Origin: Promethearchaeota archaeon
Lineage (GTDB): Archaea > Asgardarchaeota > Lokiarchaeia > Sigyniarchaeales > SOKP01
Direction of reading: 5' to 3'
Assembly (NCBI GenBank): GCA_016839745.1
Contig: JAEOTS010000189.1
Span: 1 to 30,435 of the forward strand
Length of the DNA: 30,435 bases
The notes below the pieces were generated by a model. It did not search any database, was not told the DNA's origin, and was given only the letters and a program-made list of their open reading frames with translations. Each line of letters starts with the position of its first letter. The stretch's first letter is position 1. Made by a program: the position numbers and the translations under genes. Shown in pieces: positions 12,004 to 17,891 of this stretch.

Positions 12004-12102
12004 AGAAAAATTCATTGAATTAATAGGTCTTAAATATATGTTTTAAATTTTATTTTTCTGTTATAATTTAGACTCTATGTAGCTTACAAATATAATTAAA
12101 AA

Positions 12103-12187
12103 TGCAGGAGGAGGGATTCGAACCCTCGAACTCCTATGAGACTAGAGCCTCGGTCTAGCACCGTTGACCAGGCTTGGCAACTCCTGC
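12103..12187 (-). tRNA. tRNA-Leu (GAG)
   Basis: Acceptor GCAGGAG/CTCCTGC, discriminator A, anticodon arm CTAGA-CCGAGGC-TCTAG, long variable arm, T-arm GAGGG-TTCGAAT-CCCTC. Confidence 0.93.
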
Positions 12188-12450
12188 AAATATTCTAAAT
12201 AAAATCAGATATTTTTTTATTAATTTTCTTGAACTTAATAGCATTAAAGAATAGAAGCATTTAAAAATTTTTTTTTTGTTTTCTATGATTAGATAATAGT
12301 GAAATGAAGTAGATACTGACTTTAATAGGAGAAATTTACACATATCTTATAGGTATGTATTTAACAAAATTTTTATTCATAAGTTTTAAATAATTATATA
12401 ATTGGTTTGTTTAGAATTTGATTTAATAAGAAAAACGAAGTTGAGAAAGG

Positions 12451-13467
12451 ATGCCGGTTGATACAAAGAAATTAACGGCCTTACTCCAATGGTATAAACA
12501 GAGTTTGGGTGAGGATTTAGTTGCGGTGCTTGTCGTAAATAGAGATGGTTTAATTATGGATTCTTTAATTGGTTCTTCAGAAAAAACACTTGACGAAGAA
12601 ATTATTGGGGGAGTAAGCGCTTTAGTTGAACCGGTATTAACTAGAATCACGGAAGAATTTAGTTCAGGATCGTTTGGAACGGGAACTTTTGATACTGAAG
12701 AATATCGATTCATATTTTGCGAGTCCGGACCGGAAGCTGTTCTAGTTACCGTTTTGAATTCTTTATCTGGAGTAGACGCGGTTTTTCCATACGCTTATTT
12801 GGCAGCCGAAAAGATTGCAAGAATATTTGATGGAAGAACTGTGAGTCCCGTGATCCCAAAATTAGTTTTAGGACCTAGGGGAAACCAAATTCAGCGAAAA
12901 GTAGATAAAGTTCAAAAGGTTAGAATAAAATCCAAGGAATACGCTTTTAAATTAATTCTTGGAGGAGACGGAGCTGTAGGTAAGACGAGTATGGTGCATA
13001 GATATGTCGAAAATGTTTTTGCTAAAGATTACAAATCTACAATAGGAACATCAATTATGAAAAAAGAGTGCTCCTTTAAAGAGCTTGACAGCACCGTTAG
13101 GTTCATAATATGGGATTTAGCGGGGCAAGCTCAGTTCAAACGGGTTAGATTGTCGTATTTAGCTAATGCAGAAGCAGGAATTTTAGTTTATGACGTAACT
13201 AATCGAGCTAGTTTTGAAAATATAGATAAAAATTGGTACCAGGAGATTAAAAAAGTTTCTCCTAATATCGCACTTATTTTAGTTGGTAATAAGATAGATT
13301 TAAAGGAAGAAAGAGTTGTATCAAGCGAAGAGGGAGAATCGTTATCGAACAAATTAAAGATAACATATATTGAAACATCTGCTAAGACGGGAGAGAACAT
13401 AAATGATGCTTTCAAAATACTTGCTCTACAAATTATTAAAAAGTATATAGAAACGCAGGATGTATAA
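12451..13467 (+). CDS. Roadblock/LAMTOR-like domain fused to Rab-like small GTPase
   Basis: N-terminal VLVVNRDGLIM roadblock-type pattern; G1 GDGAVGKT, G2 STIG, G3 WDLAGQ, G4 NKID, G5 ETSAK. Confidence 0.92.
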   Translation: MPVDTKKLTALLQWYKQSLGEDLVAVLVVNRDGLIMDSLIGSSEKTLDEEIIGGVSALVEPVLTRITEEFSSGSFGTGTFDTEEYRFIFCESGPEAVLVTVLNSLSGVDAVFPYAYLAAEKIARIFDGRTVSPVIPKLVLGPRGNQIQRKVDKVQKVRIKSKEYAFKLILGGDGAVGKTSMVHRYVENVFAKDYKSTIGTSIMKKECSFKELDSTVRFIIWDLAGQAQFKRVRLSYLANAEAGILVYDVTNRASFENIDKNWYQEIKKVSPNIALILVGNKIDLKEERVVSSEEGESLSNKLKITYIETSAKTGENINDAFKILALQIIKKYIETQDV

Positions 13468-13468
13468 A

Positions 13469-13562
13469 TGGAGCCTTTGGGGGGAGTTGAACCCCCGATC
13501 TACTGATGATTCGAATCAATTAATATTACGAATCAGTTGCTCTACGACTAAGCCACAAAGGC
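13469..13562 (-). tRNA. tRNA-Thr (CGT) with 19-nt canonical 37/38 intron (13508-13526); CCA encoded
   Basis: Acceptor GCCTTTG/CAAAGGC followed by TCCA; ACTGA-TTCGTA^intron^A-TCAGT; BHB central helix TTCG/CGAA with bulges TA^A and TC^A. Confidence 0.93.
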
Positions 13563-13613: not shown

Positions 13614-14630
13614 ATGAAAAAAAACGATATCATTAGTGCAATCGGAGAAGTAAAGCTAATCCGTATTATTGAAGATATAATTCTTAAAAAAACAGGTAAA
13701 GAATTAATTAGGGACGATTCCTTTTTTTTTGAAATTGATAATAGGAAAGATAAAGATAATCTTGTTCTTAACTCGGATATGTTTAATGCTACAACTGACG
13801 CTCCTACACAAATGAATTTTTATCAGATGGGAAGGAAATCTGTTCTCATGAATATTAGTGATCTCGTTGTTAAGGGTGTAAAACCTGAAGGATTAATTGT
13901 TTCTTTAGGGCTCCCGGAAGATTTGAAAGTCCTAGATTTTAAAAGTTTAATTGAGGGCATTGTTGATTATTCTAAAGCATGGAATTTAAATTATCTTGGG
14001 GGAGATATTAATTCTTCACTCGAGCTTATTATAAATCCAACTGTATTTGGTTTTAAGAAGAGTAATAAAATAATTTACCGAAAAGGCGTAAAATCTGGTA
14101 ATATAGTAGCGATTAACAACAAATTTGGTCTGACAGGTGTAGGATTTGATATAATTTTAAACAGGAGTGGGAGGCTAGAAGATTTTTCTAAATATAAAAG
14201 AGCAATAAAAAGTGTGTTAGAGCCAAACGAATTGGGAATAGAAGGAATTATGTTGGCTGATAACGATTTAGCAACAGCTAGTATTGATTCTTCAGATGGT
14301 TTATCTAAATCTTTAAAAGATTTATTGTTGTCAATTCCTAATTTGGGTTTTGAGATCGAATTCAATGAAAATTTAATTCATCCAGATGCTTTACAATATT
14401 CTAAAGAATTTCAGATTTCACTTGAAAAATTAGTCTTTAGTGCGGGAGAAGAATTCATTCATCTTTTCACAATTGATAGAAAAGACTTTGAAACAGCCCG
14501 AAAGTTAGCTACTTCCGCAGGGGGGAAATTATTTAAAGTTGGTAAAGTAATTCCTGAGGAAAAAATCTATTATTTAAAAGAAGGTAAAAGGATTGAACTA
14601 AATTATCAAGGATATGAACATTTTCGGTGA
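13614..14630 (+). CDS. thiL: Thiamine-monophosphate kinase
   Basis: IGEVKLI, DD, NISDL, GGD, IDSSDGL, GEEF, C-terminal GYEHF. Confidence 0.88.
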   Translation: MKKNDIISAIGEVKLIRIIEDIILKKTGKELIRDDSFFFEIDNRKDKDNLVLNSDMFNATTDAPTQMNFYQMGRKSVLMNISDLVVKGVKPEGLIVSLGLPEDLKVLDFKSLIEGIVDYSKAWNLNYLGGDINSSLELIINPTVFGFKKSNKIIYRKGVKSGNIVAINNKFGLTGVGFDIILNRSGRLEDFSKYKRAIKSVLEPNELGIEGIMLADNDLATASIDSSDGLSKSLKDLLLSIPNLGFEIEFNENLIHPDALQYSKEFQISLEKLVFSAGEEFIHLFTIDRKDFETARKLATSAGGKLFKVGKVIPEEKIYYLKEGKRIELNYQGYEHFR

Positions 14631-14780
14631 ATCGCCCTAAGGATATAACTCTATATATGCAGAACATACATACTCACAGAAAAAGTTATAAATTATTCTA
14701 GATTTAATCTATTACAATTTTACCTAAGCATTATTTTCATAAATAGCTAGCATTTTGTCTTAGGAAAAATTCAAATTAAA

Positions 14781-14885
14781 GGGCCATTAGCGCAGAAAAT
14801 GTGCGCGATTAGCGCCTTTTGTGTAAGCAGGTAGCGCAGCAGGCTTTTAACCTGAAGGTCGTGGGTTCGATTCCCACATGGCCCG
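14781..14885 (+). tRNA. tRNA-Lys (TTT) with 31-nt non-canonical D-loop intron (14796-14826, position 15/16)
   Basis: Acceptor GGGCCAT/ATGGCCC-G; removing the intron gives D-arm GCGC-AGGCAGGTA-GCGC; anticodon arm GCAGG-CTTTTAA-CCTGA; T-arm GTGGG-TTCGATT-CCCAC; 74 nt mature. Confidence 0.9.
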
Positions 14886-14886
14886 T

Positions 14887-15780
14887 TTAATCTTTTTTTC
14901 CAAAATTTTTTGAAATGAAACTAGGTATTGGAGCATAACTCTTTTTTAGAATTATGTTTGTCTTTTGCTTAAATTGATTTATAATTTCATCTTGAATTGA
15001 ACTCAGATTATATCTATCAAATCCATTTATCTCTTTTATAATTATTAGAATAATTTCATTTTTTTCTGATATTATTCTCTTCTTCTTATCTCGAGCTTGC
15101 TGTATAAGAAATCGGTTTAAATTATCTCCATGAACTTGATTTGGGAATTTATCATGTTGAATTCCATCGTATTCAAAAGCAATTTTATAGGTTTTGTTGT
15201 TCAGAATAAGTTTATCATTAAAGCCATCAAACTTCAATCTACCTCCCAGATCTCCATGAGTACCCAAAGCTTTTTTTAATGTTGTTTCTGGAAATTTAAG
15301 TTTAAATAATCTTTCCATATAATACCGAGTTACTCTTTCACATAATTTTGATTGACACTTTGGGCACCATCTATTGTTATAGAGAATATCATTAACTCTA
15401 ACTCTAAACTTATGATATCTATCACAAGATAAGTTAATATTTCTCAGAGTTGGTGATTGTTCTTGGGTATTAAATTCTTCTTCTGTAGTAATAATCTCAC
15501 CTCTTCTTTCTAAAATCTTAATTTTAATATCTTTATATGCTATAGAATTAATTTGACGAGATCTTGAATTCCAAATAATATAAAACAGATTTTCAGCAGA
15601 CTCTTCACCATATTTTTTTATTAGAAATTCTCGGATCCATCTATTTACTGATGTTCGAGCTAATCCTAGTGATTTTGCAATACTTCGAATGCTCTTAATT
15701 TGTGAAATATCAGGATAATGCTGCAATTCCAATTCTAATTCATTAAATAATAAGGTTTTTTTTAAATCAATTGATTTCAT
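14887..15780 (-). CDS. Putative endonuclease: HTH + zinc ribbon + PD-(D/E)XK/Vsr-like domain
   Basis: SIRSIAKSLGLARTSVNRWI (HTH); CDRYHKF...WCPKC (Zn ribbon); E..LKFDGF...AFEYDGIQH...QQARDKKK (DUF559/Vsr-like nuclease). Confidence 0.8.
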   Translation of the reverse strand: MKSIDLKKTLLFNELELELQHYPDISQIKSIRSIAKSLGLARTSVNRWIREFLIKKYGEESAENLFYIIWNSRSRQINSIAYKDIKIKILERRGEIITTEEEFNTQEQSPTLRNINLSCDRYHKFRVRVNDILYNNRWCPKCQSKLCERVTRYYMERLFKLKFPETTLKKALGTHGDLGGRLKFDGFNDKLILNNKTYKIAFEYDGIQHDKFPNQVHGDNLNRFLIQQARDKKKRIISEKNEIILIIIKEINGFDRYNLSSIQDEIINQFKQKTNIILKKSYAPIPSFISKNFGKKD

Positions 15781-15865
15781 ATATTTTCAATATCTTATTC
15801 TATAATTATATGTAAAGGGAGTATAGATTTATCAATTAGGTTTGCAGGATTATAACGAACATTAA

Positions 15866-15938
15866 GCTTTTAACCTGAGGGTCATGGGTTCGATACACTC
15901 TTTCGTTAAGAATCGATGCGAAAATTCCACATGGCCCG
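15866..15938 (+). pseudogene. tRNA-Lys 3'-half fragment carrying a 30-nt T-loop (59/60) BHB intron (15895-15924)
   Basis: GCTTTTAACCTGAGGGTCATGGGTTCGAT[ACACTCTTTCGTTAAGAATCGATGCGAAAA]TTCCACATGGCCCG; no convincing 5' half; T-stem weakened by two substitutions. Confidence 0.8.
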
Positions 15939-16082
15939 TATTTTTCTATAATGAATATAGACTTTGAGTTCAGAGCTTAAAGACTATTCGAATACTTTCT
16001 AGATTTTTAAAAAACGATAACGATAATAATTAATTTCGCTGAAAATTAACAATTATATAAAACTCTTTTCAAATTAAATTGT

Positions 16083-17093
16083 ATGCCCAATTCAGAATTT
16101 AAATTACCCTCTGACGAATCAGAGCAATTATTAGTGAAGTCTCAAGATACAACAAATATAGATTATGGGTGCGACCCTTATAATAGAGATATAGAAGATC
16201 TCTTAAAGTATGGAATTGTAAACTTAGACAAACCTAGTGGACCAACGAGTCACGAAGTAGTTTCTTGGGCGCGTAAAATATTAGAAATTGATAACGCAGG
16301 ACACGGGGGAACACTAGATCCAAAGGTAACGGGAATATTGCCTTGCGCTCTCGGTAAAGCTACTCGAGTTTTGTCTGCATTATTATATGCAGGTAAAGAA
16401 TATGTTGGGGTTATGTATTTACACGAACCCATGATGTTGAAAAAAATAGAAAAGGCATTTAAAATATTTACGGGCAAGATCTATCAAACTCCTCCTATAA
16501 AATCATCAGTAGTAAGAAAACTAAGAATAAGGGAGATATACTACGCTAGCGTGCTTGAAGTGAATAACAACCACGTGTTGTTTAAGGTTGGATGCGAAGC
16601 AGGAACCTACATTCGAAAATTATGTTTTGATATAGGAGAAGCGTTGTGTTCAGGAGCTCATATGTTGGAACTAAGGAGAACTAGAGTTGGGCATTTTAAA
16701 GAAGATGAAAGCTTAAACAGCCTTCAAAATCTAAAAGATTCTTACTCTCTATACAAAGATGAGGGTGAGGAGTTTTATTTAAGAAAAGTGGTTTCACCTA
16801 TGGAAAAAATTGTTTCCCACTTGCCTAAAATTTATGTGAGAGATACTGCTGTTGATGCGCTATGCCATGGTGCCGATTTAGCTTCTGCGGGAGTTTGTTA
16901 TATTGATGCAAGAATTAAATCAGATCTACAGGTTGTATATATGACTCTTAAAAAAGAATTGATTGGTTTTGGTGTGGCAAAAATGGATGCAATGAAGATT
17001 TACAAAGCAAAGTCGGGTATTGTAGCTAATACTAATAAGGTGTTTATGGAACGAGGAATATATCCCAGGTGGAATGAAATCAAAAACAATTAA
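16083..17093 (+). CDS. cbf5: H/ACA pseudouridine synthase Cbf5 (TruB family)
   Basis: LDKPSGPTSHEV, GHGGTLDPKVTG, CEAGTYIR, LRRTR, PUA domain. Confidence 0.97.
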   Translation: MPNSEFKLPSDESEQLLVKSQDTTNIDYGCDPYNRDIEDLLKYGIVNLDKPSGPTSHEVVSWARKILEIDNAGHGGTLDPKVTGILPCALGKATRVLSALLYAGKEYVGVMYLHEPMMLKKIEKAFKIFTGKIYQTPPIKSSVVRKLRIREIYYASVLEVNNNHVLFKVGCEAGTYIRKLCFDIGEALCSGAHMLELRRTRVGHFKEDESLNSLQNLKDSYSLYKDEGEEFYLRKVVSPMEKIVSHLPKIYVRDTAVDALCHGADLASAGVCYIDARIKSDLQVVYMTLKKELIGFGVAKMDAMKIYKAKSGIVANTNKVFMERGIYPRWNEIKNN

Positions 17094-17110
17094 GAAGAAG
17101 CTCAGCAAAT

Positions 17111-17749
17111 ATGGATAAAAAGACCCAACATTATTCAACTCAATTTCCTGATGTCAGAGTTAAAGTATATTCCGTTTCTGAAAGTCTGAAACGTCACTTA
17201 TATCTCTTTAAAACGGTTACAGGAGTATTCTCGTTCAAACAACTGGATTTAGGAACTAAAGTTTTTATAGAACACATGAAAATTCCAGAAAAACAGGGTG
17301 TTTTACTTGATCTGGGATGTGGATATGGTGCGATTGGGATTGTATTAGCACATTTGGCATCTCAGAGTACCGTGTATTTAACCGATATTAATAAAAGAGC
17401 GCTTTGGTGCGCAAGAGAAAATATAAAATATAATTTAACAGAGAGATCAGGTAAAGTAATAGTTTTACCAGGAAGTTATTTTGAACCTTTTAAGAATAAG
17501 AACGTCAAATTTGATGGGATATATATGAATCCCCCCTTGCGTAATGGTAGGCGAGAATTTCTCACTTTGTGTGAGGACATACCTCGATATTTAAAATCCA
17601 AGGGGCTATTTCAATTCGTCATAAAAAAGAAAATGGGAGCAGAATATGTACATAACTATTTGAACAAACATCATTCAGAATTGTTTGAAATAATTGAGGT
17701 GATTTTTAAGAGATCGGGATACTGGATTTTCTGTTTGATGTCATTCTAA
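17111..17749 (+). CDS. Class I SAM-dependent methyltransferase (RsmC-like)
   Basis: GVFS, LLDLGCGYGAIG, DIN, MNPP, C-terminal GYW. Confidence 0.88.
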   Translation: MDKKTQHYSTQFPDVRVKVYSVSESLKRHLYLFKTVTGVFSFKQLDLGTKVFIEHMKIPEKQGVLLDLGCGYGAIGIVLAHLASQSTVYLTDINKRALWCARENIKYNLTERSGKVIVLPGSYFEPFKNKNVKFDGIYMNPPLRNGRREFLTLCEDIPRYLKSKGLFQFVIKKKMGAEYVHNYLNKHHSELFEIIEVIFKRSGYWIFCLMSF

Positions 17750-17891
17750 CTATTTTGCAGTGAAATCGAATTTATAAGCAATTTTCTATTTTCCAACTAG
17801 AAAAACCAAAGAGATTTTAAATTAAAAAGGAAAAATTTTTTAGAAATCGAATATTTTTTGAAATAATTAGCGAGGAAAGAGGCTTTTTTTT

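Follow-up and report, generated by a model that had tools for sequence, protein, structure and literature searches.

A nuclease gene between two copies of the tRNA-Lys 3′ half

The window analysed here (the whole stretch of 30,435 nucleotides from contig JAEOTS010000189.1, C181 in our set) belongs to a 3.5-Mb metagenome-assembled genome (MAG; G000) of an Asgard archaeon, 89% complete with 5.8% contamination. Between thiL and cbf5, which flank tRNA-Lys in the same order across the genus, it holds a tRNA-Lys(UUU) gene, a single nuclease gene and, beyond that, a second, decaying copy of the tRNA 3′ half; we call the nuclease gene, with the tRNA allele beside it, the cassette. The locus was compared with 41 further genomes of the same genus (Promethearchaeia, Asgard; 42 including G000), and its features are as follows (positions are those of the window).

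13614-14630 (+): thiL (AIR-synthase-related), the left host flank, by Pfam AIRS (E 1.2e-16) and genus synteny
14781-14885 (+): working tRNA-Lys(UUU), exons 14781-14795 and 14827-14885; D-loop intron present, T-loop intron absent
14796-14826 (+): D-loop intron, 31 nt, with a putative relaxed bulge-helix-bulge (BHB) motif as read from the sequence
14843-14886 (+): left copy of the direct repeat, from the anticodon loop through the tRNA 3′ end plus 1 nt
14872-15865 (no strand): block of 994 nt absent at empty sites, comprising a tRNA 3′ exon copy, the nuclease gene and a spacer
14887-15780 (−): nuclease of 297 amino acids (aa), its stop codon 1 base (14886) from the tRNA end (14885)
15781-15865 (no strand): spacer of 85 nt, ending at the junction with the displaced fragment
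15866-15938 (+): displaced host tRNA-Lys 3′ half (positions 31-73) including the T-loop intron, decaying
15895-15924 (+): remnant of the T-loop (59/60) intron, 30 nt, homologous to the live introns of G015 and G025
16083-17093 (+): cbf5 (pseudouridine synthase), the right host flank, by Pfam TruB_N, DKCLD and PUA and by synteny

Pairing of GGGCCAT with ATGGCCC sets the start of the tRNA-Lys gene at 14781; according to ARAGORN and Rfam, which are misled by the 31-nt insertion in the D-loop (14796-14826), it would be 14812, with mismatches in the acceptor stem. Both programs overlook or shorten intron-rich tRNAs across the loci that we studied, and several neighbouring tRNAs were recognised solely by a T-arm regular expression, so that some of those assignments are provisional. 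Excision of 14796-14826 yields the D-loop AGGCAGGTA and a 5′ sequence identical to the commonest tRNA-Lys allele among the 39 other genus genomes that gave a tRNA-Lys match. No second full tRNA-Lys(UUU) match was found in the 89%-complete assembly and, this being the sole such gene found in G000, the insertion must be spliced out if a working tRNA is to be made.

An earlier note on this DNA had reported that the 3′ half recurs about 1 kb downstream with three substitutions, and its coordinates were reproduced. The 29 nt at 14843-14871 recur at 15866-15894 with 2 substitutions, the 13 nt at 14874-14886 recur exactly at 15927-15939, and the 3′ exon remnant (15925-15938) differs from 14872-14885 at 1 base, giving 3 substitutions in total over the repeat. 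Direct repeats of the tRNA 3′ part with an attL/attR-like arrangement (29 nt with 2 mismatches, and 13 nt exact) are thus present, and identity begins at G31, on the edge of the anticodon loop as the note had it. Since the spacing within the two copies differs by 30 nt, the downstream copy has a 30-nt insertion (15895-15924) between positions 59 and 60, which is the T-loop intron described as missing from the intact gene. The ORF listing gives the nuclease as the sole open reading frame (ORF) between the copies, again in agreement with the lone nuclease, one base from the tRNA end, of the earlier note.

Aligned by BLAST with G015 and others, the window matches up to 14871 and again from 15866, and in the relative these two matches share 29 nt, from which we conclude that 994 nt have been inserted in G000 and the tRNA 3′ part duplicated. 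The spacer, which is about 80% conserved in the related genome G014 and has the same junction there, contains a TATA-like TATAATTATA at 15801-15810 and probably holds what would be the nuclease promoter.

An exchange of introns in tRNA-Lys

A T-loop intron of 29-30 nt at position 59/60, with a perfect hBHBh′ motif, is found in at least 18 genus genomes, contrary to the case entertained in the earlier note that relatives never carry one in tRNA-Lys. An alignment of 17 genomes shows no variation in the exons, the T stem or the central helix (UUCG/CGAA); pairing in the 7-bp inner helix reaches 87.6%, 3 of its pairs having changed in both partners, and over the motif as a whole 94% of cells are paired, compared with 25-48% when the partners are slid. 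We take this covariation pattern as the mark of a genuine hBHBh′ intron in the relatives. G015 and G025, the closest relatives with empty sites, have a T-loop intron and a tRNA 3′ flank homologous, respectively, to the intron of the downstream fragment and to the sequence to the right of 15938. Judged by this homology, the downstream piece is the host's original tRNA-Lys 3′ half, displaced as the earlier note had proposed, and it follows that the insertion took the T-loop intron from the working gene. That insertion occurred in an allele bearing such an intron, so the suggestion that a T-loop intron was no barrier to the event also stands.

The displaced half is decaying. In G000 the substitutions G49A and C61U weaken the T stem, the central helix UUCG/CGAA survives and the 3′ exon is mutated; the G014 fragment carries a different and larger set of changes, and its BHB is without the CGAA strand; in L055, a distant metagenome contig (ENA) that also carries the nuclease at this locus, no displaced fragment is recognisable.

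As for the D-loop intron, the nuclease is linked to tRNA-Lys in three carriers, namely G000, G014 (NCBI JAHQWP010000036.1, assembled independently of G000) and L055, and all three (3/3) have the D-loop intron; a pattern scan found no D-loop insertion in the tRNA-Lys of any of 39 genus genomes without a Lys-linked nuclease (0/39). By inspection (3 sequences only) it has a central helix GCGC/GUGU with bulges AG^A and AA^G and no outer helix, and its interior forms an AAA/UUU inner helix with a GCGC hairpin. The G014 intron differs from that of G000 by 1 mismatch; that of L055 has a different sequence and a different inner hairpin, with the central helix kept (GCGC/GCGU). Because the intron is found in carriers only, a two-intron ancestor (15/16 and 59/60), which the earlier note had postulated, is unsupported: aligning the locus across relatives gave no empty site with both introns, the D-loop intron being absent from all 39. 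What remains of the note's proposed mechanism of tRNA intron loss is that a T-loop intron was removed from the working gene; as a D-loop intron arrived at the same time, comparison of these alleles leads us to regard the event as an intron swap by allele replacement, not simple loss, with the D-loop intron belonging to the incoming haplotype.

The cassette is one route to loss of the T-loop intron, and others exist. About ten relatives (G001, G023, G006, G026, G033, G019, G013, G020, G022 and G030; loci L027-L036) have an intron-free tRNA-Lys with neither cassette nor fragment, and the T-intron-bearing G016 has flanks in common with intron-free G001, G023 and G006, which argues that the T-loop intron was also lost by another route. 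We considered whether the likeness of the 3′ flank of G001, G023 and G006 to sequence downstream of the G000 tRNA might be a cassette remnant, and rejected this, as G016, with its T-loop intron, has that flank too. A third intron state occurs in G024 (C26:17513-17596) and G007 (C15:28172-28255), where tRNA-Lys(UUU) is interrupted near the variable region (at about position 44) and not in the T loop.

A Vsr-like nuclease under selection

The protein encoded between the repeats has three predicted parts.

aa 1-75 (approximately): winged helix-turn-helix (wHTH)
C119, H123, C139 and C142: CHCC zinc knuckle
aa 142-276: Vsr/EDxHD-like domain

The CHCC zinc knuckle is invariant in 14 homologs, as are D185, E203, D205, H209, D210 and K234, and the acidic/His motif is spaced E-x-D-x3-H-D, as against E-D-x-H-D in the EDxHD family. 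An AF2 model (pLDDT 83) gave as its best structural match, by VIA-align, the catalytic domain of I-Bth0305I (3r3p_B; Z 9.2, 98/98 residues, rmsd 3.5), with further matches to a RAP domain, to Vsr (1cw0_A, Z 7.8, the zinc region included) and to NGO0050 (3hrl_A, Z 7.6). Residues 1-75 align with winged-helix DNA-binding domains (Z 5.5-6.6), Pfam helix-turn-helix (HTH) hits fall below threshold at aa 26-54, and PHROGs gives a weak match to phrog_9084, 'homing endonuclease' (E 1.6e-4). The nuclease domain has no Pfam family, nothing meaningful was found in NCBIfam, and single-sequence and profile searches of PDB were empty; Foldseek against PDB gave no match at E≤0.001 and weak PD-(D/E)XK hits only, and the fold was recognised solely by the exhaustive structural aligner. 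The model thus predicts a homing-endonuclease-like fold with a Vsr-like catalytic domain.

The ratio dN/dS of the nuclease is 0.25 between G000 and G014 and also 0.25 against L055 (the proteins being 88% and 59% identical to that of G000), which shows the gene to be maintained under purifying selection. Searched at E≤1e-3, the wider domain family proved large, with 7559 representatives, and DUF4379 zinc-finger repeats occur in distant members; the full architecture was found only in Asgard MAGs among the collections searched. Within the genus the nuclease is patchily distributed: 14 of 42 genomes have a homolog of any kind, 2 of 42 a Lys-linked one, and broken copies occur in G017 (C31) and G007 (C54).

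Probable movement of the cassette among lineages

In a tree of ThiL, carrier G014 is sister to empty-site G015 (100/99), G000 falls outside this pair, and L055, which is 58% identical to G000 in ThiL and 75.5% in Cbf5, forms a separate deep branch. The presence of the cassette is incongruent with the host phylogeny. G014 and G015 are 96-99% identical over about 12 kb, but drop to 79-95% in a tract of about 4 kb with the cassette at its centre; the equivalent of this tract in the window is:

13929-17884 (no strand): tract of raised G014/G015 divergence, by pairwise identity

Synonymous divergence (dS) between these two genomes climbs from 0.136 in the GTPase gene to 0.429 in cbf5, and within the tract G000 and G014 have a haplotype in common, as against G015 and G025, in the 45 nt upstream of the tRNA and in an 8-nt indel to the right of the fragment. 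Between G000 and G014, dS is 0.244 for the nuclease, compared with 0.45-0.60 for thiL, cbf5, the methyltransferase and the GTPase. The ThiL tree, the G014/G015 tract, the haplotype of the carriers and the low nuclease dS together indicate, at the level of sequence, that the cassette has been exchanged between lineages after they diverged.

The same design at other tRNA genes

Nuclease homologs are tRNA-adjacent at about 20 of the 22 loci inspected (some of these tRNAs being assigned by T-arm matching only), an association that the earlier note had raised as a possibility. They lie 4-300 nt from genes for tRNA-Val, tRNA-Thr, probably tRNA-Ile, and others, in the genus and in other Asgard MAGs, and different paralog clades accompany different tRNAs.

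The paralog at tRNA-Asp(GUC) of G035 has 384 aa and converges on the tRNA gene, with its end 21 nt away, and this tRNA has a D-loop intron and lacks a T-loop intron. Past the start of the nuclease gene come, in this order, the apparent last bases of a T-loop intron, a remnant of the old 3′ exon and native flank, so that the displaced remnant seen at tRNA-Lys recurs here. The flanks are 96-98% identical to those of G011 right up to the tRNA, which confines the change to the tRNA-Asp gene itself.

At tRNA-Ser(GCU) of G017 and G029, a 450-aa paralog ends 48 nt from an allele with a different acceptor stem, an intron of about 50 nt in its 5′ part and no T-loop intron, while sister G005 has the standard allele, with the T-loop intron and without the nuclease; a block of 1.95 kb stands in place of 0.42 kb. 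No displaced tRNA-Ser fragment was seen when looked for in G017 and G029, the resident gene having been replaced whole, and on this comparison the tRNA-Ser allele demonstrably travels with the nuclease. In G029 (C94, locus L143) there is also an extra block of about 1.35 kb directly upstream of tRNA-Ser, which is missing from G017.

In G036 (C66), a LAGLIDADG_3 ORF of 290 aa (L010:2473-3345, +; Pfam E 2.9e-9) lies between the nuclease paralog and tRNA-Asp, its stop codon 8 nt from the 3′ end of a tRNA which has both D-loop and T-loop introns. The same layout is seen in G035 (C19), where a tRNA-like sequence, in convergent orientation, is separated from a 670-aa nuclease paralog by a 167-aa ORF without a Pfam match (L102:2530-3033, +).

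In the three paralog cases compared, then, the tRNA allele is changed each time, a displaced 3′ remnant is seen once and a LAGLIDADG ORF once. No integrase appeared among the Pfam, NCBIfam and PHROGs matches of the Lys nuclease, nor among the scanned neighbours of its homologs, which are housekeeping genes.

A proposed homing-like cassette and its alternatives

We propose that the locus is a self-contained, single-gene mobile cassette, in which a free-standing, homing-like endonuclease of Vsr/EDxHD type, presumed to cleave DNA, is linked to its own tRNA-Lys allele (with a D-loop intron and no T-loop intron); we would put the probability of this at slightly better than one half (about 0.52). 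In such a scheme the nuclease would cut tRNA-Lys genes that are free of the cassette, and the left end of the break would invade the conserved tRNA of a cassette-bearing donor, from which the allele with the D-loop intron, the intron-less 3′ part and the nuclease gene would be copied. The copied strand would then be rejoined to the right end of the break, and the recipient's 3′ half, T-loop intron included, would be left stranded and dead; its start (position 30/31) may mark the cut. Thereafter, spread among close kin could involve the whole block, by homologous recombination in the flanks. The net outcome would be replacement of the tRNA allele, with a T-loop intron out and a D-loop intron in. 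That the protein cleaves DNA, where it would cut, that the linked allele is immune and how the break would be repaired are all matters that we infer.

Several observations weigh against this proposal. Integrases, too, classically leave a direct repeat that spans the tRNA from its anticodon loop to its 3′ end, and the identity of the tRNA-Lys exons in all closer relatives means that exon differences cannot set the left border of the imported DNA. At tRNA-Asp of G035 no co-conversion tract was found outside the tRNA in comparison with G011. Nuclease dS between G000 and L055 is 1.3, about as deep as that of the hosts and compatible with old vertical descent, and the G014/G015 tract could be the result of plain homologous recombination or of a strain-chimeric MAG contig. 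The orientation of family members relative to the tRNA varies. Finally, tRNA-Asp also has a D-loop intron without a nuclease in G000's own copy and in G019, G018, G010 and G020, and the linkage of intron and nuclease is therefore not universal.

The G000 copy of tRNA-Asp(GUC) lies outside the window (C174:2458-2524, L059). Its D-loop intron is identical at 31 of 32 positions to that of the nuclease-linked allele in G035, a genome whose ThiL is only about 70% identical to that of G000; it stands within native flanks, and both the T-loop intron and the nuclease are absent. Among the close kin of G000, tRNA-Asp has the T-loop intron only in G015 and G025, and no intron in G014. The G000 gene looks like a converted or horizontally acquired allele.

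One explanation that would embrace it, which we offer tentatively and think possible at best, is collaborative homing of a protein-spliced intron. Here a D-loop BHB intron in or near the recognition site would make the linked tRNA allele immune, while the external Vsr-like nuclease would cut intron-free D-loops or T-intron alleles; repair of the break would spread the D-loop intron, with or without the nuclease gene, and erase the T-loop intron, so that a nuclease family of Asgard MAGs would drive rapid turnover of tRNA introns. The G000 tRNA-Asp gene fits this, as it has a G035-like D-loop intron in native flanks without a nuclease, and it would then be the footprint of a conversion in which the nuclease was not co-transferred.

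That the locus is instead the relic of a larger integrative element seems to us unlikely. A tyrosine-recombinase element, whose attP was an intron-less tRNA-Lys 3′ half, would have crossed over between the anticodon loop and the T-loop intron and then lost everything except a passenger nuclease, and the present distribution would reflect descent and ordinary recombination. Archaeal elements that target tRNA genes have a textbook attL/attR arrangement, with the 3′ part of the tRNA directly repeated, and the 29+14-nt repeat described here, from the anticodon loop to the 3′ end, has just this form. Furthermore, Asgard elements and viruses that integrate beside tRNA genes are documented (PMC8813620), which lends the relic explanation a precedent. 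However, neither an integrase nor any other element gene was found at the loci of G000, G014 or L055 or beside the paralogs, and one-gene content at tRNA-Lys (even at 58% ThiL identity), at tRNA-Asp and at tRNA-Ser would demand repeated, identical decay. The nuclease is under purifying selection, a crossover in the 3′ half leaves the exclusive linkage to a D-loop intron unexplained, and the tRNA-Ser allele was replaced entire, with its acceptor stem. At tRNA-Lys, integrase crossover and double-strand-break repair both fit the junctions, and an integrase is possible for the founding event. A crossover by an integrase leaves four features unaccounted for, however, namely that the one-gene content recurs at three tRNAs, that the D-loop intron is linked, that at tRNA-Ser the gene is replaced whole, and that the nuclease is under selection; a nuclease-driven cassette is the most economical account. 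Of the two origins left open by the earlier note in view of the lack of an integrase (a remnant or a homing-like cassette), the cassette is thus the better supported.

Less probable still is that the gene serves the host or is of the addiction type (a Vsr-like enzyme of repair or defence, say) and does nothing to spread itself, lying beside tRNA genes, which are rearrangement hotspots, with the allele differences and transfers due to ordinary homologous recombination among related Asgard populations. The Vsr-like fold is common to repair enzymes, the wider domain family is as large as noted above, the G014/G015 tract can be explained without the nuclease, and some ten relatives have lost the T-loop intron without a cassette. 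Set against this are the patchy distribution and broken copies, the tRNA adjacency with tRNA-specific paralog clades, and the LAGLIDADG ORF at the same spot in G036, all of these being habits typical of selfish homing genes.

It is very improbable that the downstream copy still works, whether as an alternative 3′ exon or joined in trans as half of a split tRNA. Its central BHB helix is intact in G000 and there is a TATA-like box upstream, but G49A and C61U weaken the T stem, the CGAA strand is gone from the G014 copy, L055 shows none that can be recognised, a z-score of only -1.6 to -1.9 was obtained for the fold, and the adjacent tRNA is already complete. Least credible of all is an assembly or binning artefact (a strain chimera), to which the 5.8% contamination of the MAG might point, for the same architecture is present in the independently assembled G014 contig, the nuclease abuts tRNA-Lys at the thiL-cbf5 locus of L055 (with no recognisable fragment there), the nuclease and the tRNA 3′ part also occur on a Logan contig (L056), identity among the nucleases is 59-88%, so that they are not copies of one sequence, and the downstream copy with its right flank is orthologous to the single tRNA-Lys and 3′ flank of relatives.

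Relation to known systems and to tRNA intron turnover

The homing-like cassette that we propose is closest in its enzyme to the EDxHD/Vsr-like homing endonucleases (I-Bth0305I; PMC3239194), which provide the best structural match of the C-terminal domain (3r3p_B, Z 9.2). In both, an N-terminal HTH-type DNA-binding region precedes a Vsr-like catalytic domain; the invariant acidic/His motif here (E-x-D-x3-H-D) may correspond to the E-D-x-H-D there, with its Mg-binding Asp, general-base His and neighbouring Asp, and that family also includes free-standing phage members of the Hef type (PMC3239194). Unlike them, the Lys-linked nuclease has no detectable sequence match to the family; it has a CHCC zinc site, as in Vsr, which I-Bth0305I lacks, and its gene stands alone next to a tRNA of an archaeal chromosome and is not housed in a phage group I intron or intein.

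In its arrangement the cassette resembles the free-standing homing endonucleases of phages whose targets are genes nearby, tRNA clusters among them (T4 SegB; 'intronless' and 'collaborative' homing, mobE/I-TevIII and F-CphI; PMC13096335, PMC2790892, PMC6083498). There too, the nuclease gene lies outside the intron and beside a conserved gene (here presumed to be the one cut), it spreads by break repair with co-conversion of flanking markers (as we suppose for the cassette), and an intron or polymorphism of the linked allele could confer immunity. The phage enzymes, however, are of the GIY-YIG, HNH or EndoVII families and accompany group I introns, whereas the cassette would pair a Vsr-like enzyme with a protein-spliced BHB intron in a cellular Asgard genome. 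The displaced tRNA half has its counterpart in another group: archaeal integrative elements with SSV-type or pNOB8-type integrases likewise leave the 3′ part of the tRNA, starting at the anticodon loop, in direct repeat and displace the host half by a supplied 3′ half, but here there is no integrase or other element gene and the cargo is one nuclease gene (994 nt in all), an intron on the 5′ side is co-inherited, and at tRNA-Ser the whole tRNA is replaced. We know of no phage free-standing homing system of which a displaced tRNA half is a feature.

A link between BHB introns and homing enzymes has precedents, since archaeal rRNA BHB introns carry LAGLIDADG homing endonucleases (I-DmoI, I-PorI), which make the intron mobile at the level of DNA. 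As there, a putative BHB-spliced intron is associated here with a presumed homing-type endonuclease; in those systems, though, the ORF lies inside an rRNA intron, whereas here the tRNA introns, of 30-31 nt, are free of ORFs and the nuclease gene lies outside them. The enzymes also belong to different families, despite the LAGLIDADG ORF at the equivalent place by tRNA-Asp in G036.

Few known tRNA genes are as often interrupted as those of Asgard archaea, for which a preprint census of 2026 reports many, repeated and recent intron gains, and annotation that misses D-arm introns; it found no association with mobile elements and calls the route by which introns arrive 'the central open problem' (bioRxiv 10.64898/2026.10.13.758758). 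In the literature that we searched, including papers on Asgard mobile elements, no description of this nuclease family or arrangement was found. If our preferred reading holds, the locus is a new form of free-standing homing cassette that bears on this open question of intron arrival, and it suggests one way in which tRNA introns are both lost and gained. It offers a concrete, datable case of a selfish-looking nuclease cassette altering tRNA intron content in one step, with donor-type and recipient-type alleles both visible in sister genomes that are 96-99% identical. As the nuclease has no Pfam family, screens for mobile elements that depend on hallmark genes would miss the cassette. Should the nuclease prove to cut tRNA genes, it would provide a testable mechanism of BHB intron turnover and a test of the idea that introns shield tRNA genes from mobile DNA, and would add an archaeal, tRNA-directed branch to the Vsr/EDxHD homing endonucleases.

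Other genes in the window

Two further tRNA genes upstream in the window have no nuclease neighbour: tRNA-Tyr(GUA) at 13469-13562 (−), which has an insertion of about 21 nt at the canonical anticodon-loop site, and tRNA-Leu(GAG) at 12102-12188 (−). Between them, 12451-13467 (+) encodes a protein of 338 aa; its N-terminal region is without a Pfam match, a small GTPase domain of the Ras family (Pfam E 1.3e-50) makes up the C-terminal half, and the gene fits the Asgard origin of this DNA.

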